DNA from: Myxococcales bacterium
GTDB lineage: Bacteria; Myxococcota; Myxococcia; Myxococcales; UBA5297
Assembly: GCA_049841135.1 (NCBI GenBank)
Contig: JASGHK010000008.1
Span: forward strand, 211,272-275,271
Length of the DNA stretch: 64,000 nucleotides
Reading direction: 5' to 3'
This document shows positions 2,014 to 44,302 of this stretch, in pieces (positions within the stretch are counted from its first letter, which is position 1; each line of letters begins with the position of its first letter). The notes under the pieces were generated by a model. It was not told where the DNA came from, ran no database searches, and was given only the letters and a program-made list of their open reading frames with translations. A program made the translations under genes and the position numbers.

Positions 2014-4983
2014 ATGCGCGCCTCGCACTGCTCCCTTGCCGCCTTCGCCACGGTCCTCCTGCTGGCCGGCGCCGCCCGCGCCGCCGAGGTCGACGCCTTC
2101 GGATTGGGCGACGGGAGCTGGGACGGGACGAGCCTCAATGGCGTCATCAACCGCGTCGCCGTCGTCACCGACAACATCACTGCAGGCACCAAGGCGCCCT
2201 TCGGCACCGCCGACGGCGCCGGCCCCGACAACTTCGCGGCCAACGACCTCGTCCTCCTGTGGCAGCCCACCGGCCTGTCCGCCGAGCCTCCGGTGAATCA
2301 GGCCACCACGCCGCTCGGCAGCGAGCGCGTCGGCCGCTGGGAGATCGCCCGGGTGGCGACCTTCAGCGGCAACAACATCACGCTGACCGCGGCGACGACC
2401 TACAGCTACACCGCCAACCGCGCGCAGGTCGTCCGCCTGCCCCAGTACGCCAACGTCAACGTCGCCGGCAGCAGCACGGTCAGCGCCACTCCCTGGAACG
2501 GCAAGCGCGGCGGCATCGTGGCGTTCCTCGCGACGGGCACGGTCACCGTCGCCGGGTCCATCTCCGCCGACGGCGCGGGCTTCCGTGGCGGTGCGGTGTG
2601 GGACAACGACCTCAACTCCGGGTGCAACAACGACTTCGGAAGCCGCGAGGACGGCTATGCCCAGAAGGGCGAGGGCGTCTACTGGGAGCTGTATCGCGCC
2701 AACGCGGGGGCCACCGACCACATGCAGGGCCGCAGCTCCATGGCCAACGCGGGCGGCGGCGGCGACTGCCACAACTCCGGTGGCGGCGGCGGCGGACACG
2801 CGACGCGCGGGGGCCAAGGCGGCAACTCTTGGGACAACGACCGCTCAGTGGGCGGGGCGGGCGGCGGCGCCCTCGACGACGTTCCGCCCGACCGGCTGGT
2901 CTTCGGCGGCGGCGGCGGCGCCGGCGAGGAGAACGACAACCACGGCACGGGCGGCGGTGCGGGCGGCGGCGTGGTCTTCATCCGCGCCAAGTCCCTGGCC
3001 GGCGCGGGCAGCGTCAACGCCAACGGGCAGACCGCCTCCAACACCAGCGGCGGTGGTGACGATGGCGCGGGCGGCGGCGGCGCAGGCGGAACGATTGTCG
3101 TTCGGCTGACCGAGACTGCGTCCTGCGGGGGCCTTTACGCCCGGGGTGGCAACGGCGGCAACGCCGCGGGCGGCTGCGGCAGCGGCGGCGGCGGCGCAGG
3201 CGGGCGCGTGTACCTGCAGGCCACCTCCATCGCTGCGTGCGCCACCACCGTCACTCCCGGCTCGGGCGGCACCGGCGGCAAGGCCGGCTCGACCGGCACG
3301 GCGGGGACCCCCGAGCCGCCTCCGCCCGGCGGCTACTGCTGGGCCGGCAGCACGGTCTGCGCCGCCCCGACCCCCAACTGCGACACCAACCTGGGCAGCT
3401 GTGCGGAGTGCGCGAGCAACGCTCAGTGCGCCTCGGTTTCGGGCAAGCCCATCTGCGACGCGGTGACCCGCACCTGCCGCGCCTGCACGGAAGCCGACTG
3501 CGACGGGACGTGGCGCTGCAACACGAACAGCGGCGGCTGCGTCGAGTGCCTGAGCAACGACGACTGCTCCAACCCGAGGCCCACCTGCTCGCCGACGTTG
3601 AGTTGTGTCGCCTGCACCAACAACGGCGACTGCACCATCGGCGCCAACCTCATTTGCCAGACCGCTCCCCCCTTCAACGGCAGCTGTACGGAGTGCGCGT
3701 TCGACGACGTCAACTACTGCGACTCGACCGAGCCGGCCTGCAACCTGACCCTCGGCACCTGCTCGACCTGCACCGGCGACCTGGGCGCGACCGGCGCCGT
3801 CGCCCCTTGCGCGACCACCGCCAAGCCCGCCTGCGGCAGCGACGCGCTGTGCTACCCATGCACGCCCGCGACGGCGGCGACGTGGTGCACCAACCCCGCC
3901 ACCCCGGCCTGCAGCACCTCGGACAAGACCTGTACCGCCTGTGACGCGGACAACAGCACGACCGGCGCGATCGCGCCTTGCCCGGCCACGACCGCTCCGG
4001 TCTGCACCTCCGGCCGGTGCTACCAGTGCTCGGCCGCCAAGCGTGCTCTGTGCGCCCTCGACAAGGCGTGCAGCACCAGCGGCACCTGCGGCGACTGCAC
4101 CGCCGACTACGGCAACGCCTCGGCTACGGCCCCCTGCCCCACCGACGCGCTGGCTTGGTGCGTCAGCGGCACCTGCCACGAGTGCACCTCGGGCCACCTG
4201 TCCCGCTGCGACACGTCCAAGCCCGCCTGCAGCTCGAGCGGCCTCTGCGCGAAGTGCGACTCGGACTTCGGCGACACCACCCATGACGCGCCCTGCCCGT
4301 ACGTCTCCCTCCCCGCCTGCGAGAGCAACGGCCAGTGCCTGGAGTGCAACGCGGACAACCGCTCCTTCTGCACCCCCGACGAGCCCGTCTGCCTCGCCAA
4401 CGCCACCTGCGGCTGCGACACCGACGCCGACTGCCGCTCGCTGGGCAACAACCTGCGACTGTGCGACGCGACGACCCACACCTGCTTCAACGGCTGCCGC
4501 GGCGGCGCAGACGACCTCTGCCCCGCCGGCCAGCACTGCAGCTCCACCGACACCACGCCAGGTAACTGCCTGATCGATCCCGGCGCCGACGCCGGCCTGC
4601 CGGACGCCGGTCCGCCGGATGCGGGCCAGCCGGACGCGGGTCCAGCGGACGGCGGTCTGGCCGATACGGGCACGAACGAAGACGCCGGCGCTGCCGACAC
4701 CGGCATCGTCGAGCCGCGGGATGCTGCCCTCCGTCCCGACGCGACCGTCGAGGAGGACGCCTCGGCTCTTCCGGACGCTGCGCTCGCCGAAGACTCGGGG
4801 GTCGTGGCTCCTCCGGACGCCGCGGTGGCCGACGACGGTGGAGCGCTCATCCGTAAGGACGCAGGCTCGGGGCCGGCGGTCTTCGATCTCGGCGGCTGCG
4901 GGTGCGCCAGCACCTCCGGGGCATCGATGGCGCCGTGGGCGCTGCTGGGCCTGGTGATGCTGGCGGCCCGACGCAGGAGCTGA
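2014..4983 (+). CDS. Large secreted protein: signal peptide, Gly-rich beta-helix-like region, about 25 Cys-rich repeat modules, a PDAG low-complexity linker and a MYXO-CTERM-type tail
   Basis: ATG 2014 has a GGAGG ribosome-binding site 5 nt upstream, followed by the signal peptide MRASHCSLAAFATVLLLAGAARA. Long GGGGxGG tracts are followed by repeated CxxCxxxxDC...C modules. The tail ends GGCGCASTSGASMAPWALLGLVMLAARRRS (Cys-Gly-Cys, hydrophobic helix, Arg cluster), which matches the MYXO-CTERM pattern. The six-frame ORF 91..4983 is an upstream read-through artefact. Confidence 0.8.
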   Translation: MRASHCSLAAFATVLLLAGAARAAEVDAFGLGDGSWDGTSLNGVINRVAVVTDNITAGTKAPFGTADGAGPDNFAANDLVLLWQPTGLSAEPPVNQATTPLGSERVGRWEIARVATFSGNNITLTAATTYSYTANRAQVVRLPQYANVNVAGSSTVSATPWNGKRGGIVAFLATGTVTVAGSISADGAGFRGGAVWDNDLNSGCNNDFGSREDGYAQKGEGVYWELYRANAGATDHMQGRSSMANAGGGGDCHNSGGGGGGHATRGGQGGNSWDNDRSVGGAGGGALDDVPPDRLVFGGGGGAGEENDNHGTGGGAGGGVVFIRAKSLAGAGSVNANGQTASNTSGGGDDGAGGGGAGGTIVVRLTETASCGGLYARGGNGGNAAGGCGSGGGGAGGRVYLQATSIAACATTVTPGSGGTGGKAGSTGTAGTPEPPPPGGYCWAGSTVCAAPTPNCDTNLGSCAECASNAQCASVSGKPICDAVTRTCRACTEADCDGTWRCNTNSGGCVECLSNDDCSNPRPTCSPTLSCVACTNNGDCTIGANLICQTAPPFNGSCTECAFDDVNYCDSTEPACNLTLGTCSTCTGDLGATGAVAPCATTAKPACGSDALCYPCTPATAATWCTNPATPACSTSDKTCTACDADNSTTGAIAPCPATTAPVCTSGRCYQCSAAKRALCALDKACSTSGTCGDCTADYGNASATAPCPTDALAWCVSGTCHECTSGHLSRCDTSKPACSSSGLCAKCDSDFGDTTHDAPCPYVSLPACESNGQCLECNADNRSFCTPDEPVCLANATCGCDTDADCRSLGNNLRLCDATTHTCFNGCRGGADDLCPAGQHCSSTDTTPGNCLIDPGADAGLPDAGPPDAGQPDAGPADGGLADTGTNEDAGAADTGIVEPRDAALRPDATVEEDASALPDAALAEDSGVVAPPDAAVADDGGALIRKDAGSGPAVFDLGGCGCASTSGASMAPWALLGLVMLAARRRS

Positions 4984-22064: not shown

Positions 22065-24662
22065 CTACCGGGGACTCGGTCCCGCCTTCTCCGCCAGCCA
22101 CCGCTCGATCCAGCCACGCCGGAAGGCATCCTCCGCTCCCTGCAACAGCGCGAGCGACTGGCGTGCGATCCCCAGCGCGGAGTTGCGGTCCTCGCCCGTC
22201 TCCCACAGGGCCATCGCCAGCGCCATGTCGCAGAAGACGCGCGGGTAGACGTCGGGGTGCCCAGAGGCGGTCTTCGCGGCCTCCTTCGCCAAGGGCAGCG
22301 CCTCCTTCGCCCGGCCCTGGCGGACCAGGACGCGCGCCTGTCCGGCGCGGATCTCCGCACGCAGCATCTCGTCGTCGCCGGTCAAGGCCGCGAGCGCCGC
22401 GGCGTAGGTCACCCCGGCCTCCTCCAGCCGGCCGAGGTCCTCGAGGGCCTCGCCTTCGACGAGCCCCAGCCAGGCGGCATACGCACCCGGCTCCTCGCCG
22501 ACGGACCGCAACAGCTTGCGCGCCTCGCCCACCGCCTGGAGCGCCTCGGACGAGCGCCCGAGGTTCGACTGCACGATGGCGAGGTTCCCCCAGGTCGCGG
22601 CGGCGTGGACCGGCTGCTTGAAGGGATCCCTCTCGTAGAGCTCGAGCGCCCGCCGGTACTCGGCTGCGGCGCGCGTCCGCTCGCCAGCCACTTCCAACGC
22701 TGCGGCGTAGTCGTTGAGGGCGTCCCCGAGCTGGTCGACCCCGTAGAGCTCGCCGGTCAGCTCCGCCATCTTCGCGCAGTGGGGGAGCGCCTCCTTCTTG
22801 AGCTGCGGCTCAACTCGAGCGGAGTAGGCGTTGCAGAACGCCAGCTCCACGTCGATGGCGAGCCGGCGCGGGCTGCCCGTCCGCTCCAGCCAGGCCTGGG
22901 CATCGAGCGCGGCCTCGGTCGCCTCCGCGCCACGGAACAGGTTGACCGCGAGCGCGGAGGCCAGCCGGGCGCGCGCGCTGAGGCTGGCCTCGTCGTCCCC
23001 GGAGCGGTCCGCGTCGCGGACGGCCTCGCGCAGGACCCGCACCGACTCCTCGACCTCGCCGCGGCTGCCGAGGGCCATCGAGCGCAGCTCCAGCAGCGCG
23101 GCCGCTTCGGCCCACGCGCCCTCGGCCTCGAACCGGGGCACCGTCTCGGCGGTGCGCTGTAGGACGTCGGCGTGCTGCCCCGACTCCAGCGCCAGCTGCA
23201 CCTCCACCACCAGCCGCTGCTGCTCGGTCCGCAAGTCAGAAGCGATCCGGCGAGGCCGGCGCGAGCGCTCCACGCACTCCGCCGGCGCGAGCAGCTGCAG
23301 CAGCAGCCGCCGCGTGACGCCCCCCAGGTCCGGCGACGGCCGCTCGAGCCGGCTCACGACCCCCTCCGCCCTCAGCTCCGAGCGGCCCAGGCAGCGCAGC
23401 TCCTCGGCGTTCTGGGCCCCGGCGCGCTGGGCCCGGCAGGCCTGCTCCTGGGCGACACCCCAGGCACGGGCATCGGCGTCGAGCGCCGCGAGCGTGGCCG
23501 CGAGCGCCTCCGGGGCCAGCCCTGCGGCCCTCAAGTTGGCGGAGACGCCTTCGCGGCGAGCGGGGCTCCAGCGCCGCTGCACGGCGGCTCGCGCCTCGCG
23601 GCCGCACAGCGTCTGCTGCCGGTAGAGCCAGGCGCCGGAAGCGCCGACCAGGCCCACGGCCAGGAACACCGAGACCGCCCGGGCCGCCGCGCGCCGGACC
23701 TTCGCGGCCGGGTCGCGGCGCAGCTCGCGCAAGAGATCGGCGAGCGACGGGAAGCGGTCCGCGGGCTGCCGGGAGAGGCCGCGCGCGAGCACCTGCCGCA
23801 GGTGGGCCGGGACCGCCTTGGGCAGCGCGGACAGGTCGGGGGCGCCCAAGAGCACGCTGGCCCGCAGCGACTCGAAGTCGTTGCCCGCGAAGGGCAGACG
23901 CCCGGCGAGCGCCTCGAACAGCGCCGCGCAGAGGCTGAACTGGTCGGTGCGGGCGTCGGTGGGGTTGCCCACGAACTGCTCGGGGGCCATGTACGCCGGC
24001 GTCCCCGCAACCGTGCCGCCGACGGTCACCTCCACCGAGGTCCTGGGCGCCACCGCGCGGGCGACCGAGCCCTCTCCCGCGTCGCGGGGCTCGACCCGGG
24101 CCAGCCCGAAGTCGGTGACGCGCACGCGCCCCAGGCGGTCCACCAGCACGTTCTGTGGCTTGAAGTCGCGGTGCACCAACCCGGCCGCGTGGGCCGCCGC
24201 CAACCCCTCTCCGGCGGTGGCGAAGGCGTCCACGATCTGCCGGACGCTGCGCTCGGAGGAAGCTAGCCACTGCGCCAGCGTCTGGCCGTCCACGAGCTCC
24301 ATGGCCAGGAAGACCTGCTCGCCGTAGAAGCCCGCGTCGTAGACCGTCACCGCGTTGGGGTGGTTCAGGCGGGCCATCGCCTGCGCCTCGCGCAACAGGC
24401 GCGCCCGGGCCACCTCCGCGCCCGCGGAGTCCACCTTGAGGAGCTTGAGCGCGACCTTGCGGTTGAGCTCGGGGTCGTAGGCGGCGTAGACCGCGCCCAT
24501 GCCGCCCTCGCCGACGAGCTCCAGCACCAGGTAGCGGCCCACGGCGGTGCCGCGGGCGAGCCCGGGGGCAGCGCTCGCGCGCTCGCCGGAGACGGCGGTG
24601 TCGGCGAGCGAGGTCCGCGCGGGGGCCGACGGGGGCGGGGCGAGTGGGTCCGGGGCGGCCAC
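22065..24662 (-). CDS. Ser/Thr protein kinase with one transmembrane helix and a C-terminal TPR array
   Basis: Hanks kinase motifs are present: GEGGMGAVYAAYD, VALKLL, HRDFKPQNVLVD, DFGLA and a PE-containing APE segment. A transmembrane segment VSVFLAVGLVGASGAWL is followed by about 450 aa of TPR-like helices. The GTG start lies 3 nt after the MCP stop, which suggests the two genes are co-transcribed. Confidence 0.85.
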   Translation of the reverse strand: MAAPDPLAPPPSAPARTSLADTAVSGERASAAPGLARGTAVGRYLVLELVGEGGMGAVYAAYDPELNRKVALKLLKVDSAGAEVARARLLREAQAMARLNHPNAVTVYDAGFYGEQVFLAMELVDGQTLAQWLASSERSVRQIVDAFATAGEGLAAAHAAGLVHRDFKPQNVLVDRLGRVRVTDFGLARVEPRDAGEGSVARAVAPRTSVEVTVGGTVAGTPAYMAPEQFVGNPTDARTDQFSLCAALFEALAGRLPFAGNDFESLRASVLLGAPDLSALPKAVPAHLRQVLARGLSRQPADRFPSLADLLRELRRDPAAKVRRAAARAVSVFLAVGLVGASGAWLYRQQTLCGREARAAVQRRWSPARREGVSANLRAAGLAPEALAATLAALDADARAWGVAQEQACRAQRAGAQNAEELRCLGRSELRAEGVVSRLERPSPDLGGVTRRLLLQLLAPAECVERSRRPRRIASDLRTEQQRLVVEVQLALESGQHADVLQRTAETVPRFEAEGAWAEAAALLELRSMALGSRGEVEESVRVLREAVRDADRSGDDEASLSARARLASALAVNLFRGAEATEAALDAQAWLERTGSPRRLAIDVELAFCNAYSARVEPQLKKEALPHCAKMAELTGELYGVDQLGDALNDYAAALEVAGERTRAAAEYRRALELYERDPFKQPVHAAATWGNLAIVQSNLGRSSEALQAVGEARKLLRSVGEEPGAYAAWLGLVEGEALEDLGRLEEAGVTYAAALAALTGDDEMLRAEIRAGQARVLVRQGRAKEALPLAKEAAKTASGHPDVYPRVFCDMALAMALWETGEDRNSALGIARQSLALLQGAEDAFRRGWIERWLAEKAGPSPR

Positions 24663-24665
24663 GCG

Positions 24666-26777
24666 CTACACCTTGAACCTGCGCACCTCGTCGCGCAGCA
24701 CCTCGGCCTGCTGCGCCAGGGTGTCGATGGCCCGCTCCAGCTCCTTCATCGACAGGTTCTGCTGGTCGGCGACGCCCTTGATGGACTCCACGGCGCGCAT
24801 CACCTGCTCGCTGCCCTTGGTCTGCTCCTTCTGGGCGTTGTTCAGGTGGGTGACCATCTCGTTGATGTTCTCGATGGAGTGCGTGATCTGCTTGCTGCCG
24901 CGCGCCTGCTCCTGGCTCGAGCGCTCGACGTGCTTGGTGATCGACTTCATCTTCTCCGCCGACTTCATGATCTGCTCGCTGCCCTTGGCGAGCTCGGCGG
25001 TGGACTTGGCGATCTGCTGCACGGTCTGGTCGATGCGGTTGATGGCGTTGGTCACCTGCTTGCTGCCGCGGGCCTGCTCCACCGTCGCCCGGGCGATGGC
25101 CTTGACCATCTGCGTGGCCTTGGCGGACGAGTCGCTGATCTTCTTGAGCGCCCCGCTGGTGTCGCCGCCCAGGCGCACGCCGTCGTCGACGGCCTTGACG
25201 CCGCGCTCCATGGCCTCGATGGCGTTCTTGGACTCGTCCTGGACGCCCTTGATCAGCGCGCTGATCTCCTTGGTCGAGGCGCCGGTGCGCTCGGCCAGGT
25301 CCTTGATCTCGTCGGCGACCACCGCGAAGCCCTTGCCGTGCTCGCCGGCCTGGGCGGCGATGATGGCGGCGTTGAGGGCCAAGAGGTTGGTCTGCTCGGC
25401 GACGTCGTCGATGACGTTGAGGATGTTGCCGATGGTGCCGATCTTCTTGCCCAGGCTCTCGATGACCTCCGCGGCCTGCTTGGAGGACTCCTTGATCTTG
25501 TCGATGCCGACCAGCGTCTTCTGCAGCGTGAGCACGCCGAAGTTGGCGTCCTCGCTCACCGTCTCCGAGAGCCGCGCGGTCTCGTTGGCGTTGGTCTCCA
25601 CCTGGCCGATGGAGACGTCCATCTCGTTCATCGACGAGCTGGTCTCGCCGGAGGAGGAGGACAGCTCCTCGATGTTGGCGGCGACCTCGCGGATGGAGAA
25701 GGTCATCTGCCCGATGGCGGCGGTGGTCTCCTCGACGCTGGCGGACAGGCCCTGGATGTTCTCGGCCACCTCGTTGTTGGTGGCGGCCATCTCCATGATC
25801 GAGGTGCTGCTCTCCTCGGCGCTGCCGGCCAGGACCTCCACGTTCTCGGCGATGGACTTGAGGCTGGCGATCATCTCCTCCATCGAGCTGGAGGTCTCGT
25901 CGACGCTCTGGGCGGTGGTCGCCGCGCCCTTGGCCACCACGTCGCCGGTGTGGCTGATCTTCTCGATGACCGTGGCCACCGACTCGCTGACGCCCTTCAC
26001 GCGCGAGAGCGTGGTCCGCAGGTTCTCGCCGGTGCGGTTGAGCGCGTCGGAGAGCTGGCCGAACTCGACCCCGCCGATGCCCTTGACCTGCTCGGTCAGG
26101 TCGCAGTCGCTGATCTTCTTCGCCACGCCCATCATCGACTCCAGCGGCGCGGTGATGAACTGCCGGCTGATGAAGGCCAGCACCACGAAGAACACGATCA
26201 CGCCGACCACGAAGACGACGACCATGGTGGACAGCACGCTGCCCAGCACCGCCGTCACCTGCCGGTCGGAGAGCAGCACCACCGCGTAGCCCACCACCCG
26301 CTCGTCGCTGGCGCCCAGCTGGTCGATGCGCCGCTCGCGGGCGGCTTGCGCATAGAGGATGTGGCCGGTGCCCAGGTCGGCCGGCTCGTCGGTGCGCTCG
26401 AAGGTGCGGCCGCGCTTGCGCGACTCGTCCACCAGCGCCCGCAGCCGGGCCAGCGCCGCCTCCGACAGCGCCGGGTCCACGCCGCTGGTGGCGGTGATGC
26501 TGAAGTCCGACTTGACCAGGATGACGTGCCCCTCGCTCGAGGAGAGCTGCACCGAGCGCATCGCCTCGGCGCCCTGCAGCTCGCTCTGGAAGGGCAGCGC
26601 GCTGCGCTCGGCCAGCGAGCGGGCGAGGTCGGCGCCGCGGGCGTTGAGGCTGGCGCGCAGCGAGTCCTTGACCCGGCTGGTGACGAACCAGGCGGTGGTG
26701 ATGAGCAGCACCGCCAGCAGCAGGCTGAACGAGCCGAAGATGATGTTGCGCAGCTTGGCGCGGTGCAGCCAGCTCAT
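24666..26777 (-). CDS. Methyl-accepting chemotaxis protein with HAMP and MCP signalling domains
   Basis: Two transmembrane helices flank a periplasmic region. A HAMP domain precedes the highly conserved MCP signalling hairpin (…[33 protein letters not shown]…) and heptad methylation helices. A GGAAGAGG ribosome-binding site precedes ATG 26777. Confidence 0.85.
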
Positions 26778-26838
26778 GTGGACCTCTTCCCGGCGCGACG
26801 AGTCTAAGGGAGGCGATGGGCGCCGGAAGCGCGCCATC

Positions 26839-27762
26839 CTACTGCACCTGGACCGCTTCTTTGAGCGCCTCCTGCGGCAGGCTGACGCCCAGCGCCCGCG
26901 CCGTGCCCAGGTTGACGACCAGCTTGAAGCGCGGCTGCGCGGCCGAGAGCTCGCCGGGCTTCTTGCCCTCCGACAGCGCGCGCGCCAGCCGCGCCGCCTC
27001 GATGCCCACCGCCTCGAAGTCCGGCGAGAGAGACAGCAGCGCGCCGCGGCGCACGAACTCGTCGCTGAAGGCCACCAGCGGCACGCGCTTGGCCATGGCC
27101 GACTCCAGCATCAGCCGGAAGGTGTCGGCGGTGACCACGGTGGGGTCGGCCAGCAACCAGAGCGCCTGCGCCCGGGGCAGCACCTCGCGCAGCGCCTCGG
27201 GGAAGGCCGCCGCCGAGCTCGCCGGCGCGGCGACGAGGGAGAGCGAGAGCGCCTCGGCCGCAGCCTGGGCCTCCTTGACCTCGGCGCTCGACCGCGCCGG
27301 GTTGTAGACCAGGCCCACGGTCTTGGCCGCGGGCAGCAGCCGCTTGAGCTCGGCGAGCTGGACCTTGGCGGGGATCTCCAGGGGGACGCCGACCAGGTTG
27401 GGCCCGCCGACGCCGTTGGCCTTGGCATCCAGGACCATGCAGTAGACGACCGGCACCCCCGCGAGCTCCTGCGCCGCCTTGGCCGCGCGCGCGCCCACCG
27501 CCACCACCAGCTGCGGGCGCTCGGCCTGGACCCGCGCGAGCGCGTCCTCCTCGAACTCCATCACGTGCGTCGCCACCGGACCGTCCCAGGCGCGCTTGAA
27601 CGCCGCCAGGGCCTGCTGGTACGGGGCGGCGCTCTGGGCGACGAGGGCGCTCACGCGCGGCGGAGCAGCCCGGGCCGGCAGCGGCCAAGCCAGGGCGGCC
27701 GCGGCGAGGAGCGCGGCGGCGGCGAGTCTCGAAGCAGCCCCCCCGGAGATGCGTGGGCGCAT
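26839..27762 (-). CDS. Periplasmic substrate-binding protein of the uncharacterised ABC-type transport/sensor family (PF04392-like)
   Basis: ATG 27762 follows a GGGAGAG ribosome-binding site. The signal peptide is [32 protein letters not shown]. The architecture …[25 protein letters not shown]…GLVYNP…[19 protein letters not shown]… is typical of this family. The six-frame ORF 26839..30849 is an artefactual fusion. Confidence 0.7.
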
Positions 27763-27899
27763 CGGAGGCTCTCCCAGGTGCACGGGCGAAGTGCGGATCT
27801 TCATAGCTGCCCGCGCTCCCGAAGTCGATAGCCGCCCGCCCCACCCGAATAGGAGAGCGCCCGCACGGCCGGCTGGCCATGCGGGCGCCCTGGAGTGGG

Positions 27900-30797
27900 C
27901 TACTGGCAGTAACCCGAGTTCATGCCGCCGGTGGTGCAGGTGCCGCTGGCGCAGTAGTTGCCCAGGCAGCAGCGCTGGGTCGTCGCGCCGCAGCTCTGGC
28001 ACTGGTTCTGGGCGCAGATGAAGCCGGTGCCGCACCAGGCACCGCCGGTGCCGGGGCAGCAGGCCTGTCCGGAGCCGCCGCAGGCGACGCACACCTGGTT
28101 GAAGTTCGAGGTCGTGTAGGCCTCGGTGCAGCCGTTGATGGGGCAACGGTCCTCGCCCAGGCCGCCGCAGGGATCGCCCTGGCTCTCGCAGCTGCCCTGG
28201 ACGCAGGCCCCCTCGCCGCCGGTGCAGGCCGCGCCGCTGGCGAGGCAGAGGCCGTCGCGGTCGCAGCACCCGCCCCCTTCGCAGGCGATGCCGTCGCAGC
28301 AGGGCTGCCCGGCTCCGCCGCAGGCCTGGCAACGGTCGCCGTTGTTGGCCGCCGGCGCGCAGACCGTGCCCGCCGCGGTGCAGAAGTCGCTGCCGCGCTG
28401 GCTGACGCAGCAGGCCTGGCCGAGCCCGCCGCAGGTGGTGTTGCCGGAGGTGCACCCCGTGGCGCCGCAGGTGCCGAAGGCGCCGGTGCAGGCGGCCCCC
28501 GAGGCCACGCAGACCGAGCCCGAGCAGCAGCTGGTGCCGCCGCAGGTGGCGTCCGGGCAGCAGGCCTTGCCGTCGGAGCCGCACTCGACGAACTGGCCGC
28601 TGGAGCAGATGAGCCCGGAGGCCGAGCCCGAGGCCCCGTCGGGGACGCAGGTGTTGCTGGCGGTGTCGACGCAACCGCCGCCCACGCAGGTCGGCGGGGT
28701 GCCCGGGCAGGGCGCCTGGAAGGGCCCGCCGCAGGACTCGCACGCGCCGCTGGCGCCGCACACCGCGCCGGTGCCGCAGGCCGCGCCGGGGGCGACACAG
28801 GCGCCGCCGGTGCAGCAGCCGCCGGTGCAGCTGTTGCCGGCGCAGCAGGCGTTGCCCACGACGCCGCAGGTCTTGCAGGTGCCGCCCTGGCAGGTGGTGC
28901 CCGCCGCGGTGCAGGTGCTGAGCAGGCAGCAGGGACCGTCCAGGCCGCCGCAGGTCCCGCAGGCGCCGTCGGTGCAGGTGGCGCCGCCGGTGCAGGTGCC
29001 GCCGGGGGCGATGCAGGTGCCATTGGTGACGGCGGTGGCTCCGACGCAGCAGCCGCCGGTCTCGCAGCCGTTGTTGGCGCAGCAGGCGCTGCCCGCCGTG
29101 CCGCAGGCCGCGCAGGTCCCCAGGGCGTTGCAGATCGCCCCGGTGTTGCAGGCCCGGCCGGAACAGCAGGGGCTGCCGGCGGCGCCGCAGGAGACGCAGG
29201 TGTTGTTGTTGCAGACGTTGCCCGTGCCGCAGGCGCCGCCCGCGCAGCAGGGCCCGCCCGCCGTTCCGCAGGCCGTGCAGGTGCCCCCGCTGCAGACGTT
29301 GCCGGCCGAGCAGGCGCCGCCCGCGCAGCAGGGCTGGGTGGCGCCGCCGCAGGCCTCGCAGGTGCCGTTGACGCAGCGGCCGCCGGCGGCGCAGGCGTTG
29401 TTGGCGCAGCAGCCCTCGCCGACCGCACCGCAGTGCGTGCAGGTGTTGAGGGCGGTGCAGGTGGAGCTGGCGGCGCAGGTGCGGCCGACCGCCACGCAGG
29501 TCTTGTTGGCGGGGTCGGTGGTGTTGCAGCAGCCGGTGTTGCAGGCGTCGCCGGCGCAGCAGGGCTGGCCGGGGCCGCCGCAGCCGGCGCAGGCGCCTCC
29601 CGCCAGGCAGAGATCGCCGTCGGAGCAGGCCGAGCCGACGTTGATGCAGCGGCCGTTGCCGTTCACGTCGCAGCAGCCGGCGGTGCAGGCGTCGCCCGGG
29701 CAGCAGACCTCGCCCGCGCCGCCGCAGTTCTGGCAGGTGCCGTTGCGGCAGGAGGTGCCGGCGGCGGTGCAGGTGTTGTTCGCGCAGCAGGCCGAGCCGG
29801 CCGTGCCGCAGGTGGCGCAGGTGCCCAGGGTGCACAGCGTGCTCGGGGCGGTGCAGACGGTGGGCGGCATCCCGCAGCAGGTCTCGCCCGTGCCGCCGCA
29901 GGTGCCGCAGGCACCGGCGGCGCAGGTGCCGCCGCTGGGGCAGGCGGAGCCGGAGGCGACGCAGGTGCCGCTGTAGCAGCAGCCGCCGGTCTCGCAGGTG
30001 TTGGCCGCGCAGCAGGCCTCGCCCGCGCCGCCGCAGTTGGCGCAGGTGCCGTTGCGGCAGACGAGGTCGGCCCCGGTGCAGGTGTTGCCGGCGCAGCAGG
30101 CGTCGCCGACCGAGCCGCAGACGACGCACAGGCCGGCGCGGCAGGTGGCGCCGGCGGCGGTGCAGGTGTTGCCCTCGCAGCAGGGCTCGCCGCCCGCGCC
30201 GCAGGCGGCGCACTGGCCGGTCGAGCCGCAGACGAGGCCCGTGCCGCACTCCTGCGCGCCGCCGGTGCAGCAGGCCTGGCCGGCGCCGCCGCAGGGCGGG
30301 GCCGCGCAGGTCCCGGCGGTGCAGACCTGGCCGCCGCCGCAGCTCTGGCCCTCGGCGAGGCAGGAGCCGCCCGAGCAGCAGGCGTTCCCGGTGCAGGTGT
30401 TGCCGCCGCAGCAGGTCTGGCCAGGCGCGCCGCAGGGGACGCACTGGCCGCTCGCGTTGCACAGGCCGCCGCCGGTGCAGACGTTGCCCGGACAGCAGAA
30501 CTGGCCGTTGGCGCCGCACTCGCCGGCGTCGTAGTCGATGGAGGCGTCGGGCGGGACGATCGGGTCGGCGTCCGGGAGGTCGACGACGGTCGCGTCGGGC
30601 GTCTCGACCACGCCGGTGTCGCCGGCCACCACGATCGCGGCGTCGCCCGGCAGCGTTCCGGTGTCGCCGGCCGTGACGATGCCGGTGTCGGAGGTGCTGC
30701 CCCCGCCGTCGGCGACGTAGGGCGCCACGGGCTCGGCGCAGCCAGCAGCCATCACCAGCGCGAGACAGGCTCGCGCCAGAAGCTTTCGCGTCTCCAT
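27900..30797 (-). CDS. Giant Cys/Gly-rich tandem-repeat lipoprotein of 965 aa with about 30 CGxxGQxCCxGNxC-type modules
   Basis: A GGGAGG ribosome-binding site lies upstream and the signal and lipobox are METRKLLARACLALVMAAGC. An acidic PDA/TG-rich linker precedes about 750 aa of roughly 25-aa modules such as CGAPGQTCCGGNTCTGNACCSGGSC and CGGAGEVCCPGDACTAGCC. The last module is ...CQSCGATTQRCCLGNYCASGTCTTGGMNSGYCQ. Confidence 0.8.
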   Translation of the reverse strand: METRKLLARACLALVMAAGCAEPVAPYVADGGGSTSDTGIVTAGDTGTLPGDAAIVVAGDTGVVETPDATVVDLPDADPIVPPDASIDYDAGECGANGQFCCPGNVCTGGGLCNASGQCVPCGAPGQTCCGGNTCTGNACCSGGSCLAEGQSCGGGQVCTAGTCAAPPCGGAGQACCTGGAQECGTGLVCGSTGQCAACGAGGEPCCEGNTCTAAGATCRAGLCVVCGSVGDACCAGNTCTGADLVCRNGTCANCGGAGEACCAANTCETGGCCYSGTCVASGSACPSGGTCAAGACGTCGGTGETCCGMPPTVCTAPSTLCTLGTCATCGTAGSACCANNTCTAAGTSCRNGTCQNCGGAGEVCCPGDACTAGCCDVNGNGRCINVGSACSDGDLCLAGGACAGCGGPGQPCCAGDACNTGCCNTTDPANKTCVAVGRTCAASSTCTALNTCTHCGAVGEGCCANNACAAGGRCVNGTCEACGGATQPCCAGGACSAGNVCSGGTCTACGTAGGPCCAGGACGTGNVCNNNTCVSCGAAGSPCCSGRACNTGAICNALGTCAACGTAGSACCANNGCETGGCCVGATAVTNGTCIAPGGTCTGGATCTDGACGTCGGLDGPCCLLSTCTAAGTTCQGGTCKTCGVVGNACCAGNSCTGGCCTGGACVAPGAACGTGAVCGASGACESCGGPFQAPCPGTPPTCVGGGCVDTASNTCVPDGASGSASGLICSSGQFVECGSDGKACCPDATCGGTSCCSGSVCVASGAACTGAFGTCGATGCTSGNTTCGGLGQACCVSQRGSDFCTAAGTVCAPAANNGDRCQACGGAGQPCCDGIACEGGGCCDRDGLCLASGAACTGGEGACVQGSCESQGDPCGGLGEDRCPINGCTEAYTTSNFNQVCVACGGSGQACCPGTGGAWCGTGFICAQNQCQSCGATTQRCCLGNYCASGTCTTGGMNSGYCQ

Positions 30798-30897
30798 TTT
30801 TCGGACCTCCCGAGGCTTGGTTCCTCGCTGCTCCGGGCCGGCAGTCCACGGAGCGGACGAAGGCGAGGATACCCCCGGGGCCGTCCCCGGCCTAACA

Positions 30898-31027
30898 AGG
30901 GCTTCGGGCTGCGGGCTTCGGGCTTCGGGTCAAGCCGCGGGTAGAGGTTCTCGAGGGCGTTGCCCGCGTTGTCCCCGGTCAGCTCGCCCGAAGTCCCGAA
31001 GTCCCGAAGTCCCGAAGCCCGAAGCCC
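30898..31027. repeat. REP-like palindromic intergenic repeat (GGCTTCGGG family) between the Cys-rich lipoprotein and the MVP-like gene
   Basis: The sequence reads gcttcgggctgcgggcttcgggcttcgggtcaagccgcggg ... cccgaagtcccgaagtcccgaagtcccgaagcccgaagccc. The two arms are inverted complements that could form a long hairpin. It shares the core with 11064..11150 and 63509..63681. Confidence 0.55.
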
Positions 31028-41879: not shown

Positions 41880-42140
41880 GTGAGCTTGGACGGGCTGATC
41901 TCCGAGGGGAGCCTGCGCGCAGCCGTCCAGTTCCTGGTCCGGCTCGTCGAGACCGCCGGGGCGATCATCATCTTCGCGGGCGCCGCCACGGGCTTCGCCC
42001 GCTTCCTGCTGGTCGCCGCGCTGCGGCGCAACCCCTCGCTGTTCACGCCGGTCCGCCTCGACGTGGGGCGGTTCCTCGCCTTGGGGCTCGAGTTCCAGCT
42101 CGCCTCGGACCTGTTGCGCACGGCCGTGGCCCCTCCTTGA
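41880..42140 (+). pseudogene. DUF1622-like small membrane protein gene, C-terminally truncated by the tandem repeat array
   Basis: From GTG 41880 the sequence reads SLDGLISEGSLRAAVQFLVRLVETAGAIIIFAGAATGFARFLLVAALRRNPSLFTPVRLDVGRFLALGLEFQLASDLLRTAVAPP*. It matches the DUF1622 pattern (…GR.L.LGLEF.LAADI.RT…) but stops abruptly where the first repeat unit begins. Confidence 0.5.
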
Positions 42141-42662
42141 AAATCCGCCCCGCCGCGCCCGCCCGAGACCTGTCACACGCCGAGGACCTGTCCCACGTGG
42201 GACAGGTCTCTCCCTTTGGAAACTCGCCCCGCCGCGCCCGCCCGAGACCTGTCACACGCCGAGGACCTGTCCCACGTGTGCCAGGTCTCTCCCTCGGGAA
42301 ACTCGCCCCGCCGCGCTCGCCCGAGACCTGTCACACGCCGAGACCTGTCACACGCCGAGGACCTGTCACACGCCGAGGACCTGTCCCACGTGGGACAGGT
42401 CTCTCCCTCTGGAAATCGGAAATCCGCCCCGCCGCGCTCGCCCGAGACCTGCCACACGCCGAGGACCTGTCACACGTGTGGCAGGTCTCTCCCTCTGGAA
42501 ATCCGCCCCGCCGCGCTCGCCCGAGACCTGTCACACGCCGAGGACCTGTCACACGTGTGGCAGGTCTCTCCCTCTGGAAATCCGCCCCGCCGCGCTCGCC
42601 CGAGACCTGTCACACGCCGAGGACCTGTCACACGTGTGGCAGGTCTCTCCCTCTGGAAATCC
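42141..42662. repeat. Tandem array of about 79-bp units, 6.1 units on this side, each holding a CACGTG-centred near-perfect palindrome and 18-bp internal sub-repeats
   Basis: The consensus unit is GGAAATCCGCCCCGCCGCGCTCGCCCGAGACCTGTCACACGCCGAGGACCTGTCACACGTGTGGCAGGTCTCTCCCTCT. Units start at 42141, 42218, 42297 (115 bp, with two extra GACCTGTCACACGCCGAG copies), 42411 (86 bp), 42497, 42576 and 42655. The seventh unit is split by IS66 copy 2 after its first 8 bp. Confidence 0.9.
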
Positions 42663-42757
42663 GTACGTCCTCGCCCGTCCCCGTCTGGCGGAGGGCGCCA
42701 GGGGCGCGTATTCGCGCGCGCGTGCGAGGCCGGCGCCGCGCGCCGGCGGCGTAGTGG

Positions 42758-44269
42758 TCAGGGCTGGGGCACGGCGGCCGCGTGCTCGTGCGGCAGCGGC
42801 ATTGGCTGGTGCGTGAGGCGCGCGATGACCGCAGCCTTGAGGTAGGCGCGCGGGTCTACGCGGTGGAGCTTGCAGGTCTCCATCAGCGTGTACATCAGCG
42901 CCGCCACCTCAGCGCCGCGCTCGGATCGAGAGCCGTAGTGGTTCTTGCGCCCGAGCACCACGCCGCGCAGCGAGCGTTCGGCGAAGTTGTTGTCGAGCGG
43001 CACGAGCGGGTCAGCCAGGAAGACCGTCAGCCCCTTCCACTGGCCCTGCATGTACTTGATCGCCTCGGCCAGGCCGCTCGACGGCAGCACCATCGCGAGC
43101 GTCCGGTTTCCCCACCGCTCGATGTCCTCGATGACCTGGGTGGACTTCTCCGCGCGCAGACGGGCGCGCTGAGCCAGGCCCTCGGCGCCATTGGAAGCGA
43201 CCTCGCCCTCGATTCGATAGAGCTCTGCGATCAGTCCCAGGATCTCCGAGACCGGCTGCGGAAAGTTCTTCTCGACCTCCAGGAATTTTCGGCGCGCATG
43301 CGGCCAGCAAGAAGCGAGCCGGAAGCTGGGGCCGTCACGCGACTGCGCCAAGCTCGAGTAGACGCTGTAGCCGTCAGCCATCACCGTGCCGCGATAGCCG
43401 GCCAGCAGCTCGCGGGCCACCTGCGCGCCGCGCGAGGGGTCGATGTGGTGGTAGACCGCGCGGCTCGAGCAGATGGTCCAGTCGTACCACCACTCGCTGC
43501 CCTTCTCGCCGCGCGCAGCCATCTTGCGCCAGCGCGTCTCGTCGGCGTGGACCACGGCGTCTGTCAGCACCAGCGCCCGCAGCCGCGGTCGTAGCGGCTC
43601 GAGGACCGCCGCCAGCGCCTCGAGGTAGTCCCACAGCGTCTGGGAGTCGGTCACCAGTCCGTCGCGCTTCATGGCGCGGCACTGCCGCTCCAGCGGCTGG
43701 TGGTCGGTGTACTTGTCCACGGCGATGCCGATGGCGAAGTCGATGGAGTAGCGCGCCCCCTCGAAGAGCTTGAGCGGGCCGGGCGCGGTGACGATGCACT
43801 CGTTGCAGGAGCAGCGGTACTTCTGCCGCAGGTGCTTGTGCAGCTCGAAGCGGCGGTGGACGACAGTGATCTCCTCGGAGGGCTCAAACTCGCCCTTCAT
43901 CGGATTGAGCGTCCCGCCGCACTTTTCACACTGGAGCTGGTCCTCGCCGAGCGCCCAGATGCGCTCGATGGACGGCAGGGCCGGCTGCTCCCGGCGGCCG
44001 TGACCCGTCTGCGGCTTTTTCGCCGCCGAGGTCGGCTCGCCGCGGCGCTCCGACGACGAGGGCGCGAAGAGCTTCTCGTTCTGGAGCGCGAGCTGCCGCT
44101 GCAGCTTCTCGAGCTCGAGCTGCAGCGCCTTGGTGTCGCCGCCCTTGAGCGCGGTCAGCTCGGCGAGCACCTCGGCGATGCGCCGGTGCAGGTGCCGGTT
44201 CTCGGCCTCGAGGAGTATCGCCGCTTGCCGCAGCACCTCGATGTTCTTCTCGCGCTCAAGGGAGACCAA
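42758..44269 (-). CDS. tnpC: IS66-family transposase (TnpC) of copy 2
   Basis: The 503-aa product is identical to that of 39355..40866. Confidence 0.9.
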   Translation of the reverse strand: MVSLEREKNIEVLRQAAILLEAENRHLHRRIAEVLAELTALKGGDTKALQLELEKLQRQLALQNEKLFAPSSSERRGEPTSAAKKPQTGHGRREQPALPSIERIWALGEDQLQCEKCGGTLNPMKGEFEPSEEITVVHRRFELHKHLRQKYRCSCNECIVTAPGPLKLFEGARYSIDFAIGIAVDKYTDHQPLERQCRAMKRDGLVTDSQTLWDYLEALAAVLEPLRPRLRALVLTDAVVHADETRWRKMAARGEKGSEWWYDWTICSSRAVYHHIDPSRGAQVARELLAGYRGTVMADGYSVYSSLAQSRDGPSFRLASCWPHARRKFLEVEKNFPQPVSEILGLIAELYRIEGEVASNGAEGLAQRARLRAEKSTQVIEDIERWGNRTLAMVLPSSGLAEAIKYMQGQWKGLTVFLADPLVPLDNNFAERSLRGVVLGRKNHYGSRSERGAEVAALMYTLMETCKLHRVDPRAYLKAAVIARLTHQPMPLPHEHAAAVPQP

Positions 44270-44302
44270 AGCGCGACCAAGCTAACGCATGAGGGGCGAA
44301 GG

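Follow-up and report, generated by a model that had tools for sequence, protein, structure and literature searches.

The minus-strand gene at 27900..30797 of the window (the whole stretch of 64,000 nt that was analyzed) encodes a 965-aa protein composed largely of 24 cysteine-rich modules, the last seven of which form a cassette that about 40 relatives share, collinearly and at their C termini. By our sequence and profile searches, the module family is uncatalogued, being absent from Pfam and NCBIfam and without a relative in the PDB. We propose that the product is an exported, lipid-anchored envelope protein of a myxobacterium in which an acidic tether carries a disulfide-rich stalk of modules and a conserved C-terminal binding tip, a reading for which we judge the chances to be evenly balanced.

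The gene, its putative export signal, and its linker

The ORF starts at an ATG that is the first start past the upstream stop and is preceded, 8 nt before, by a Shine-Dalgarno-like GGGAGG read from the sequence (30806..30811, minus strand); it ends with a TAG stop codon (27900..27902, minus strand). Its GC content by codon position is 0.57/0.76/0.97, the third-position value (GC3) is even along the whole gene, and the translation contains 176 Cys (18.2%) and 203 Gly (21%) residues. Neither promoter nor terminator consensus sites were found in the intergenic DNA to the neighbors on either side. The ORF is a genuine protein-coding gene, in the frame given in the earlier note: the reading frame is supported by a GC3 of 0.97 and by homologs in which the Cys columns are kept, in-frame fusions to known domains being among them.

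The chance that the Cys-rich frame is a by-product of another frame, such as the plus-strand Pro/Gln-rich ORF at 28120..29976, is negligible. On the opposite strand, shadow ORFs (619 and 186 aa) do have high GC3, which is again 0.97 for the one at 28120..29976; open antisense frames are, however, to be expected at 76% GC where third positions are shared. The plus-strand frame stops at 29976 and lacks a signal peptide, whereas the minus-strand frame stays open over 965 aa, has a ribosome-binding site and a lipobox, and keeps its Cys columns in 75 and in 819 homologs (31–48% identity), some of which carry Pfam domains in the same frame. Based on the stop at 29976 and the Cys residues conserved in minus-strand homologs, the antisense ORF was rejected as a true gene.

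By inspection of the translation, residues 1–19 (METRKLLARACLALVMAAG; 30741..30797, minus strand) form a putative signal peptide with a basic n-region (R4, K5, and R9), a hydrophobic core, and small residues at positions −1 to −3. A lipobox-like MAAGC follows LLA..CLALV, and Cys20 (30738..30740, minus strand), with Ala at +2, is the predicted acylated N terminus of the mature protein on the basis of translation and composition. The Gly at −1 and Ala at −2 fit [LVI][ASTVI][GAS]-C; the residue at −3 is Ala, not Leu, Val, or Ile, and this fits solely the relaxed PROSITE-type rule. A lipobox-like motif is present at residues 11–45 in at least 113 of 200 family members, and the 965-aa protein is probably a lipid-anchored lipoprotein. 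The MYXO-CTERM tail (TIGR03901; Cys motif, transmembrane helix, and Arg-rich tail), which both other Cys-rich proteins of the window match, is absent here, as the protein ends in ...GGMNSGYCQ and has no NCBIfam match. The earlier description of the product as a lipoprotein lacking MYXO-CTERM is supported, with lipidation as a prediction.

Residues 21–93 (30519..30737, minus strand) form a Cys-free acidic linker with a net charge of −15, 11% Pro, and degenerate repeats of the GDTG type; DNA repeats with a period of 21–24 nt lie within it at 30607..30690. The pLDDT of this linker is <50 in AlphaFold2, and homologs have similar D/A/G/P-rich linkers after the lipobox.

Two module sizes and a conserved C-terminal cassette

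In residues 94–965, C-x6-CC occurs 22 times, compared with 6.8 (maximum 16) in 2000 shuffles, and CGxxGxxCC occurs 19 times, compared with 0.3 (maximum 4). Where about 30 modules of 25 aa had been counted before, we identified 24 modules, of which 13 are short (27–37 aa, 6 Cys, framework C-CC-C-C-C), 8 are long (45–51 aa, 10 Cys, framework C-CC-C-CC-C-C-C-C), and 3 are variants. The Cys spacing of the short module is C-x6-CC-x4-C-x5-6-C-x4-C, and adjacent modules are parted by two-residue spacers with no conserved cleavage motif. Neither the two sizes nor a conserved seven-module C-terminal cassette, which defines an orthologous group, had been recognized in the earlier note.

Based on the module map, the AlphaFold2 models, and DNA periods, residues 94–688 (28734..30518, minus strand) are an array of 17 modules and the proposed stalk. 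The order of its short (S) and long (L) modules is S L S S S L S S L L S S S S L S L, and its composition is 21% Cys, 22% Gly, 38% A/T/S/N, 0.5% aromatic, and 7.4% aliphatic residues. The DNA of the array repeats itself every 81, 84, and 162 nt, with 70–76% identity between repeats.

Residues 689–965 (27903..28733, minus strand), as delimited by homolog alignments and a cassette HMM, are the seven-module cassette and the proposed distal head. The module order is fixed (variant, L, S, L, variant, S, S), 3.6% of residues are aromatic, and the motifs DFCT, CTAP(Y/F)T, and (W/Y)CG are conserved. The cassette aligns collinearly from end to end, at 40–45% identity, with P0183, P0091, P0090, P0001, and other relatives. 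With its HMM, the window protein scores 252.9 bits, and 38 other proteins exceed 100 bits; matches that cover at least 80% of the HMM length number 53, in 51 proteins, and 41 of them end no more than 15 aa from the C terminus. In most of these relatives, a signal peptide and linker alone (45–135 aa) precede the cassette, compared with 688 aa in the window protein.

A profile search with the S and L modules found 819 representatives, and all family members are unnamed hypothetical proteins. The window protein has the features that define this family, namely tandem S (6-Cys) and L (10-Cys) modules with the seven-module cassette at the C terminus. The whole protein matched nothing in Pfam or NCBIfam at E ≤ 1, and searches of Pfam at E ≤ 10 with single modules and the cassette returned solely DUF7107 and Dickkopf_N, at 8–12 bits versus thresholds of 24.6–25. 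When the protein and the S+L profile were searched against PDB sequences, the best E value was 0.03, to LDL-receptor class A repeats, a match that was judged compositional. Literature searches for a description of the CGxxGQxCC repeat found nothing, and no further module copy is present elsewhere in the window. The repeat family is, as had been stated, distinct from those of the two other Cys-rich window proteins; that at 58975..61878 has Disintegrin-type repeats, a different module. This module family marks a gap in domain catalogs because it is missing from Pfam, NCBIfam, and the PDB yet is modeled confidently.

Predicted disulfide pairing and fold, and proposed architecture

Every module has an even number of Cys residues (174 in total), and across the family (630 short and 372 long modules) Cys losses come in pairs: (8,10) 17 times, (2,6) 6 times, (2,6,8,10) 5 times, and (1,3) 4 times and 2 times, the co-loss counts being small for (1,3) and for (2,5) of the short module. 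Cys6 was also lost singly, 33 times from short modules and 11 times from long ones, and these losses may be alignment slips. Because the count per module is even and losses are paired across the family, the cysteines behave as disulfide partners. From the sequences, we infer the pairing 1–3, 2–5, 4–6 for the short module and 1–3, 2–6, 4–7, 5–9, 8–10 for the long module, which would make a ladder of each.

The local module fold is predicted with confidence by AlphaFold2. The S5-L6 model (pLDDT 93.6, pTM 0.73) has solely short two-stranded hairpins, and pLDDT in the full-length model is mostly 80–94 for residues 110–650; the cassette is of low confidence in that model (pLDDT <50 for residues 723–913). 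DSSP analysis of both models showed isolated two-stranded hairpins. The best Foldseek matches were non-significant ones to knottins, with target-normalized TM-scores of 0.4–0.65 over 22–32 columns, and the full-length model had a weak match to wheat germ agglutinin (E = 3). Neither a solenoid nor a granulin was among the fold-search matches.

These data bear on two other readings of the repeats. The Cys content of 18% is the sole point in favor of a metallothionein-like envelope protein, in which reduced cysteines would chelate Cu, Zn, or Cd or act as a redox buffer. This reading is very unlikely, as the putative lipoprotein signal would export the protein into an oxidizing compartment, the cysteines are even in number per module and lost in specific pairs, AlphaFold2 models a defined hairpin fold with confidence in the absence of a ligand, and C-x-C clusters of the metallothionein type are lacking, the spacings being CC and C-x4-6-C. 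We find it scarcely credible that the protein binds ice, minerals, or surfaces through a flat face rich in Thr and Asn, or that it is an insect-antifreeze-like β-solenoid. The 11 occurrences of TCT and the 38% A/T/S/N content of the array would suit this reading, but TCT does not hold a fixed position in all modules. The antifreeze-like coil or β-solenoid raised earlier also finds no support, given the period, which is 27–51 aa (81, 84, and 162 nt) in place of the 12–13-aa TCTxSxxCxxAx coils of the Tenebrio antifreeze β-helix, the short two-stranded hairpins that alone make up the models, and fold searches without a solenoid.

In the proposed tether, stalk, and head architecture, the protein would most likely be located in the outer membrane or be surface-associated. 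The acylated Cys20 would be followed by a 73-aa acidic disordered tether and then by 24 abutting mini-domains almost without a hydrophobic core, the fold of which would be held by up to 87 disulfides. A short module would be a small β-hairpin unit with three disulfides, and a long module would be the same unit with one extra Cys and a three-Cys extension, for five disulfides. Because the modules abut with two-residue spacers, the array is predicted to be a stiff, protease-resistant rod of tens of nanometers. Its 17 modules would serve as a stalk of variable length, and the last seven, as a position-specific cassette and the conserved core of the orthologous group, probably carry the binding activity at the distal tip, the ligand possibly being matrix or glycan. 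A stalk role is supported by relatives in which the lipobox is followed by the array and then by a distal CBM9_1 domain (P0022) or distal PA14/DUF4215 domains (P0029), and by others in which the modules are fused to subtilase and FG-GAP proteins; fibro-slime is also among the fusion partners.

Cleavage of a polyprotein precursor into small disulfide-rich peptides (toxins or signals), as with progranulin or cyclotide precursors, would be in keeping with the module size of 27–50 aa, the weak structural likeness to knottin toxins and cyclotides, and a predicted connectivity like that of mini-granulin (PMC7463432). We give this reading very little credence, given that the two-residue spacers have no conserved cleavage motif, the protein is predicted to be lipid-anchored, the cassette keeps its module order, as a single folded unit would be expected to, and the array is part of multidomain proteins in relatives.

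It is also unlikely that binding is spread over the whole array, as in a multivalent lectin or an adhesin for matrix, with a sugar of exopolysaccharide, peptidoglycan, or the prey cell wall bound by every module. Such a protein would be likened to the tandem hevein domains of wheat germ agglutinin, the weak Foldseek match; several fusion partners are carbohydrate-related or adhesive (CBM9_1, PA14, fibro-slime, and FG-GAP), and the gene for homolog P0001 sits after glycosyltransferase genes. Hevein-type and most CBM sites, however, depend on aromatic stacking, and the array, with 0.5% aromatic residues, has neither the aromatic/Ser sugar site of hevein/CBM18 nor a Pfam match to CBM18 or any other CBM, and the structural matches are non-significant.

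Beyond the tether, stalk, and head, it is possible, though doubtful, that the S and L modules are an undescribed prokaryotic disulfide-ladder mini-fold, an independent counterpart of the granulin hairpin stack. Used 24 times with ∼87 disulfides, it would build a rigid surface rod of ∼50 nm, the length of which is tuned by module duplication, and the seven-module tip would be a new recognition head for cell-cell, cell-matrix, or predator-prey contact. If this is true, few known proteins would be as densely cross-linked.

Downstream on the same strand are genes for an SBP (PF04392), an MCP, and a Ser/Thr kinase with TPR, in agreement with the earlier note; the gap to the SBP gene, given there as 138 bp, measures 137 nt if that gene starts at the ATG at 27762 and 95 nt if it starts at the ATG at 27804. 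No conserved operon was found at 15 related loci, the neighbors of which differ. At 13 of these, tblastn with the window SBP, MCP, vault-like, and WGR proteins gave generic kinase-domain similarity alone, and the other two (L014 and L015) were assessed by gene lists. The suggested functional link to the SBP-MCP-kinase genes is unsupported because no SBP, MCP, or vault-like homolog is present at any of the 15 loci. The stalk and head reading likewise draws no support from conserved gene neighbors at these loci. DUF1552/PSD gene pairs, which are numerous in such genomes, are found near three homologs (L003, L010, and L011) and not near the window gene.

In myxobacteria, gliding, kin recognition, predation, and fruiting-body formation all rely on surface proteins, many of which bear Cys-rich repeats. 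The pattern of a conserved head on a stalk of variable length provides a concrete, genetically testable hypothesis, and the module, as a small and probably very stable scaffold, may be of interest to protein engineers. Because the family is rare and no conserved neighborhood points to a function, the finding carries modest practical weight.

Comparison with known Cys-rich repeat systems

The TraA repeats (TIGR04201) and the Myxococcus cysteine-rich repeat (TIGR02232/Pfam DUF4215) are likewise short, tandem, Cys-rich repeats of the myxobacterial envelope that are presumed to be oxidized. A rigid stalk that presents a distal binding domain is the role put forward for the repeats in TraA (PMC3325183), and this working principle of stalk and distal head would be common to the 965-aa protein. 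There is no sequence relationship, as the TIGR04201, TIGR02232, and DUF4215 HMMs are unmatched at E ≤ 1. The predicted anchor is an N-terminal lipid, whereas TraA has MYXO-CTERM, so the polarity would be reversed, with the head at the C terminus. In addition, the modules described here have 6 or 10 Cys residues with CC doublets, and the proposed head consists of variant modules in place of a PA14 domain. DUF4215 is found in relative P0029, in a segment separate from the modules.

The rod-forming eukaryotic arrays of EGF-like, LDL-receptor class A, disintegrin, and Dickkopf_N domains have a similar beads-on-a-string extracellular architecture. The sole sequence or profile hints were to LDL-receptor class A and disintegrin in the PDB (E = 0.03–0.2) and to Dickkopf_N and DUF7107 in Pfam (8–12 bits). 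The present modules differ from these domains in lacking a Ca-binding acidic cluster and in their Cys spacing, and the scores are far below thresholds. Inhibitor cystine knot and DDH peptides (spider toxins, cyclotides, DkTx, and LaIT1) resemble the short module in having ∼30 aa, six Cys residues with a CC doublet, and a C-terminal β-hairpin; there was no significant fold match, and the pairing predicted above is not the 1–4, 2–5, 3–6 knot of knottins.

The granulin or knottin comparison drawn in the earlier note does not extend to family membership, as there is no Pfam match and the Cys spacing differs. The 12-Cys framework of granulin (PF00396; C-C-CC-CC-CC-CC-C-C) is lacking, and the granulin spacing is C-x5-6-C-x5-CC-x8-CC versus C-x6-CC-x4-C-x5-6-C-x4-C here. 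Unlike progranulin, the protein is bacterial, predicted to be lipid-anchored, and without linkers for proteolytic release. As a structural analogy, the comparison stands, given the predicted connectivity and the weak Foldseek matches to knottins: both systems would have tandem, small, core-less modules with CC doublets, in which hairpins are pinned by a ladder of overlapping disulfides. The paired losses at (1,3), (2,5)/(2,6), and (8,10), small as the counts are, are compatible with the granulin ladder, which begins 1–3, 2–5, 4–7. The connectivity of half-granulin (mini-granulin) is 1–3, 2–5, 4–6 (PMC7463432), and the pairing predicted for the short module would equal this pattern.

Reading frame and surroundings of the Cys-repeat gene

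The gene under study (27900..30797, minus strand) had been read in an earlier note as encoding a 965-aa protein, and this open reading frame was borne out, running from 30797 to a TAG stop at 27900. There is no start codon between the upstream in-frame stop and its ATG, and GGGAGG lies 8 nt 5' of the ATG. GC content at codon positions 1, 2, and 3 is 0.57, 0.76, and 0.97, and GC3 is 0.93–0.99 in each 100-codon block, in agreement with neighboring genes (0.91–0.99). The product (the window protein) contains 176 Cys (18.2%) and 203 Gly (21%), and aromatic residues are nearly absent. As proposed, its N terminus (METRKLLARACLALVMAAG followed by C, Cys20) resembles a lipoprotein signal, and it has no C-terminal sorting tail of the MYXO-CTERM type. 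In Myxococcus lipoprotein sorting, Lys at +2 bears on location, and its absence here suggests that the window protein is placed in the outer membrane or at the surface.

Two long antisense open reading frames (28120..29976 and 29977..30534, plus strand) are rich in Pro, Gln, and Ala and have a GC3 of 0.97–0.99. They were rejected as the true gene because they are stop-interrupted and lack a signal peptide and because homologues conserve the Cys-rich frame; they are the expected shadow frame, with third positions in common with the real gene. Gene callers that rely on GC3 alone could annotate the wrong strand at 28120..30534. Since the Cys-rich frame is kept in homologues, some of which run on in frame into Pfam domains, the repeats are not an out-of-frame translation of another gene.

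The gene map places three genes downstream on the same strand, as described previously: an ABC_sub_bind periplasmic binding protein (SBP, 26839..27801), an MCP with a HAMP domain (24666..26837), and a Ser/Thr kinase with TPRs (22065..24665). The gap to the SBP gene, given earlier as 138 bp, is 137 nt or, with the alternative SBP start, 95 nt. No promoter or terminator consensus was detected on either side of the gene under study. A functional link to these three genes was not supported, as the neighborhood is not conserved in 15 related loci, where the neighbors include glycosyltransferases, a thioredoxin, sigma factors, DUF1552/PSD pairs, and a fatty-acid desaturase. When the window SBP, MCP, vault-like, and WGR proteins were compared by tblastn with 13 related loci, no match was found (neighbors in the other two, L014 and L015, were judged from gene lists), and the window kinase showed only generic kinase-domain similarity to the related loci. 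A DUF1552 (HXXSHH) gene lies within 1–8 kb of the homologue in loci L003 (60..1532, called by sequence inspection only), L010 (2916..6807), and L011 (3915..7107), with a PSD/PSCyt gene beside it in the latter two; no such pair lies beside the window gene. DUF1552/PSD pairs are numerous in such genomes, so this proximity may be chance.

Upstream lies a major-vault-protein-like (vault-like) gene (31030..33250, minus strand) with an MVP shoulder domain (E = 6e-29) and Vault_3. Near 31171 its frame seems to move by one base, owing to a sequencing error or a true frameshift: GC3 of the listed open reading frame falls from 1.0 to about 0.5, and the alternative frame has a plausible end, TKNLSPLAILGGTSVAEVMERLLKSLPIGVGGSPAEPAAARPLPGKK, with a stop near 31030. 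With the end so corrected, the apparent 46-nt overlap with the start codon of the window gene vanishes. The spacer between the two genes is roughly 230 nt, and spacer positions 30898..31028 hold a perfect 17-nt inverted repeat (GGGCTTCGGGCTTCGGG at 30913–30929 and CCCGAAGCCCGAAGCCC at 31011–31027, 81 nt between), which could form a large hairpin with the role of a terminator or REP-like element, as well as three tandem CCCGAAGT octamers (30987–31018). The product of 34647..36146 (plus strand), a gene divergent to the vault-like gene, joins a WGR domain to a WD40 beta-propeller; such proximity (within 3 kb) of two "eukaryote-like" proteins is unusual. A lipoprotein-like open reading frame (33836..34492, plus strand; MTRTFQALAVSVVLAGC) begins a different Cys-rich protein and after ∼90 codons seems to go on in another frame (34084..34482; CRPWDCNTSCAKTCSCTNGRWDCNTECW); GC3 of this region is under coding level, and the gene may be frameshifted or in decay. 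An IS66-family transposase gene occurs twice (39259..40878 and 42662..44281, 508 aa each, 3403 nt apart), with a 300-nt stretch over the 3' ends 100% identical and a tandem array of 79-nt period (42062..42700) between the copies.

Two module sizes and a conserved cassette

In residues 94–965, C-x6-CC occurs 22 times, compared with 6.8 (maximum 16) in 2000 composition-preserving shuffles, and CGxxGxxCC occurs 19 times, compared with 0.3 (maximum 4). These data demonstrate that the module motifs are repeated far beyond chance. Modules were cut at the CG..G..CC anchor and checked with HMMs made from the window protein's own modules. The repeats had been described as about 30 units of about 25 aa; we found 24 modules of two sizes, and both examples quoted at that time are the starts of long modules. 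Thirteen are short (S; 27–37 aa, 6 Cys, consensus CGxxGQPCCxGxxCxxGxxCxxGxC), eight are long (L; 45–51 aa, 10 Cys, consensus CGxPGxxCCxGxxCxxGGCCxxxxCVAxGxxCxxxGxCxxGxC), and three are variants (residues 689–738, 877–905, and 936–965, with 6, 4, and 6 Cys, respectively). Judged by spacing, an L module is an S module with one additional Cys, which makes a second doublet, and a three-Cys C-terminal extension. Only two residues lie between the last Cys of one module and the first of the next, and the Cys count is even in all 24 (total 174). A Cys-free linker of 73 aa (net charge −15, 11% Pro) precedes the 17-module array (residues 94–688). Because the repeats at the DNA level (periods 81, 84, and 162 nt) are only 70–76% identical, the array is not a recent or assembly-generated duplication.

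The remaining seven modules (the cassette, residues 689–965, 277 aa) align end to end, at 40–45% identity, with C-terminal portions of numerous family members. The aligned relatives have a common module order (variant, L, S, L, variant, S, S). Conservation extends beyond Cys (DFCT, CTAP-Y/F-T, and W/Y-CG), alongside indels specific to modules. This fixed order, together with two-residue spacers devoid of cleavage motifs, argues against a polyprotein that releases peptides. Aromatic residues make up 3.6% of the cassette versus 0.5% of the array. At least 80% of a cassette HMM was covered in 51 of 201 retrieved proteins, 41 of 53 matches at this coverage end ≤15 aa from the C terminus, and 39 proteins, the window protein included, scored >100 bits. 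Most cassette proteins are ∼330 aa and consist of signal peptide, lipobox, acidic linker, and cassette. The cassette is preceded by 45–135 aa in most, 214–411 in a few, and 688 in the window protein, the largest such expansion within this set. Given these short relatives, the gene is best seen as belonging to a small orthologous group of cassette lipoproteins, with 17 additional S and L modules inserted into it. A word-indexed search with the cassette only returned just unnamed metagenomic singletons (≤48% identity).

The window protein had zero Pfam or NCBIfam matches at E ≤ 1; single modules matched Pfam DUF7107 and Dickkopf_N at only 8–12 bits (cut-offs about 25 bits). A PDB sequence search with the window protein gave no match, and an S+L profile gave compositional matches only (E = 0.03–0.2). 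A word-indexed search of 5.8 billion proteins returned 75 homologues, the closest with ≤38% identity over most of the length and ≤48% over short parts, all named "hypothetical protein" except one "fibro-slime domain-containing protein" and one "unnamed protein product". A profile made solely from six S-L pairs of the window protein matched 819 cluster representatives among 1.84 billion proteins at E ≤ 0.001 (245 at E ≤ 1e-10, 12 at E ≤ 1e-30). A scan of species-representative genomes found seven loci with family members, all in MAGs; five carry myxobacterial labels (Archangium, Polyangia, Sandaracinaceae, Myxococcaceae, and Polyangiaceae) and two are labeled only uncultured (delta)proteobacteria. 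The family is narrow and rare in distribution, and its genomic context is not conserved.

The window itself is myxobacterial, since the 2014..4983 (plus strand) product scores 345 bits (cut-off 275) against the AgmC N-terminal model (adventurous gliding motility) and both other Cys-rich proteins have MYXO-CTERM tails. The claim of a distinct repeat family was upheld, as both of those proteins differ from the window protein: the 2014..4983 product by its AgmC match, and that of 58975..61878 (plus strand) by 18 Disintegrin-type repeats and a bacterial cadherin/Big_9 domain.

More than half of the family members have a lipobox near the N terminus. In some relatives, modules are combined with known extracellular domains, namely CBM9_1 (P0022 and five others), PA14 and DUF4215 (P0029 and others), subtilase (P0057 and others), or FG-GAP (P0015), and in the CBM9 and PA14 relatives the array sits between lipobox and distal domain. 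Two proteins, P0008 and P0020 (1178 and 1275 aa), have a ∼650-aa N-terminal domain without a Pfam match, six to eight short family modules, and a different Cys repeat (C..C..G..CG...DGCGG...CG.C); they end in a MYXO-CTERM-like tail, so the family module also occurs in C-terminally anchored proteins.

Predicted fold and disulfide pairing

The full-length AlphaFold2 model (51 aligned sequences) has a mean pLDDT of 60.5, with most modules in residues 110–650 at 80–94 and the linker and most of the cassette <50, the latter probably because few sequences in that alignment bear a cassette. Modeling of the adjacent pair S5-L6 (73 aa, 71 aligned S-L pairs) gave a pLDDT of 93.6 and a pTM of 0.73, with hairpins at the C-terminal end of both units. 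Secondary structure in the full-length model is limited to short two-stranded hairpins, so the suggested beta-solenoid was not recovered. An antifreeze-type solenoid is likewise disfavored by these hairpins and by the 27–51-aa period.

HMM alignments of 630 S and 372 L modules were used to predict disulfide partners from the joint absence of Cys. In L modules, Cys8 and Cys10 are jointly absent 17 times, Cys2 and Cys6 six times, and Cys1 and Cys3 twice; Cys2, 6, 8, and 10 are all absent five times, the form of the variant at 689–738, which is conserved in homologues P0001 and P0002. In S modules, Cys1 and Cys3 are jointly absent four times and Cys2 and Cys5 once. Single losses (S Cys6, 33 times; L Cys6, 11 times) are probably alignment slips at variable loops. 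Combined with the spacing correspondence of S and L, the joint losses lend modest support to an overlapping ladder, 1-3, 2-5, 4-6 in S and 1-3, 2-6, 4-7, 5-9, 8-10 in L. The predicted S pairing is the one published for half-granulin ("mini-granulin") peptides (1-3, 2-5, 4-6; PMC7463432), and of the resemblances suggested earlier (granulin, knottin, or antifreeze), that to granulin may hold as a structural analogy. Loss of Cys in pairs, their even number per module, the confidently modeled hairpins, and export by a lipoprotein signal all argue against metal binding as thiolates.

Proposed role and known systems

We propose that the window protein is an exported, lipid-anchored envelope protein whose fold would be held by disulfides, not by a hydrophobic core. 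In this model, the array would act as a spacer that fixes the distance from the membrane and the cassette as the functional tip, or predicted head. Consistent with such a stalk-and-head design, CBM9 and PA14 relatives carry the array between the anchor and a distal domain, the array modules ahead of the invariant cassette vary in number, and the surface of the array is bland and free of aromatics. From typical sizes of such mini-domains, the length can be roughly estimated as 50 nm.

Myxobacterial surface proteins with Cys-rich tandem repeats are known as a kind. Neither the module family nor its two-size architecture nor the conserved cassette is present in Pfam, NCBIfam, or PDB, and our literature search found no description of them. 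The window protein is an unusually expanded member built on a clean, confidently modeled, uncatalogued mini-fold. A stalk role has been proposed for the Cys-rich repeats of TraA (PMC3325183), which are unrelated to those of the array but share its proposed role. The polarity is reversed, as the window protein has an N-terminal lipid anchor and a C-terminal predicted head, and, unlike that of TraA, this head is itself built of variant modules.
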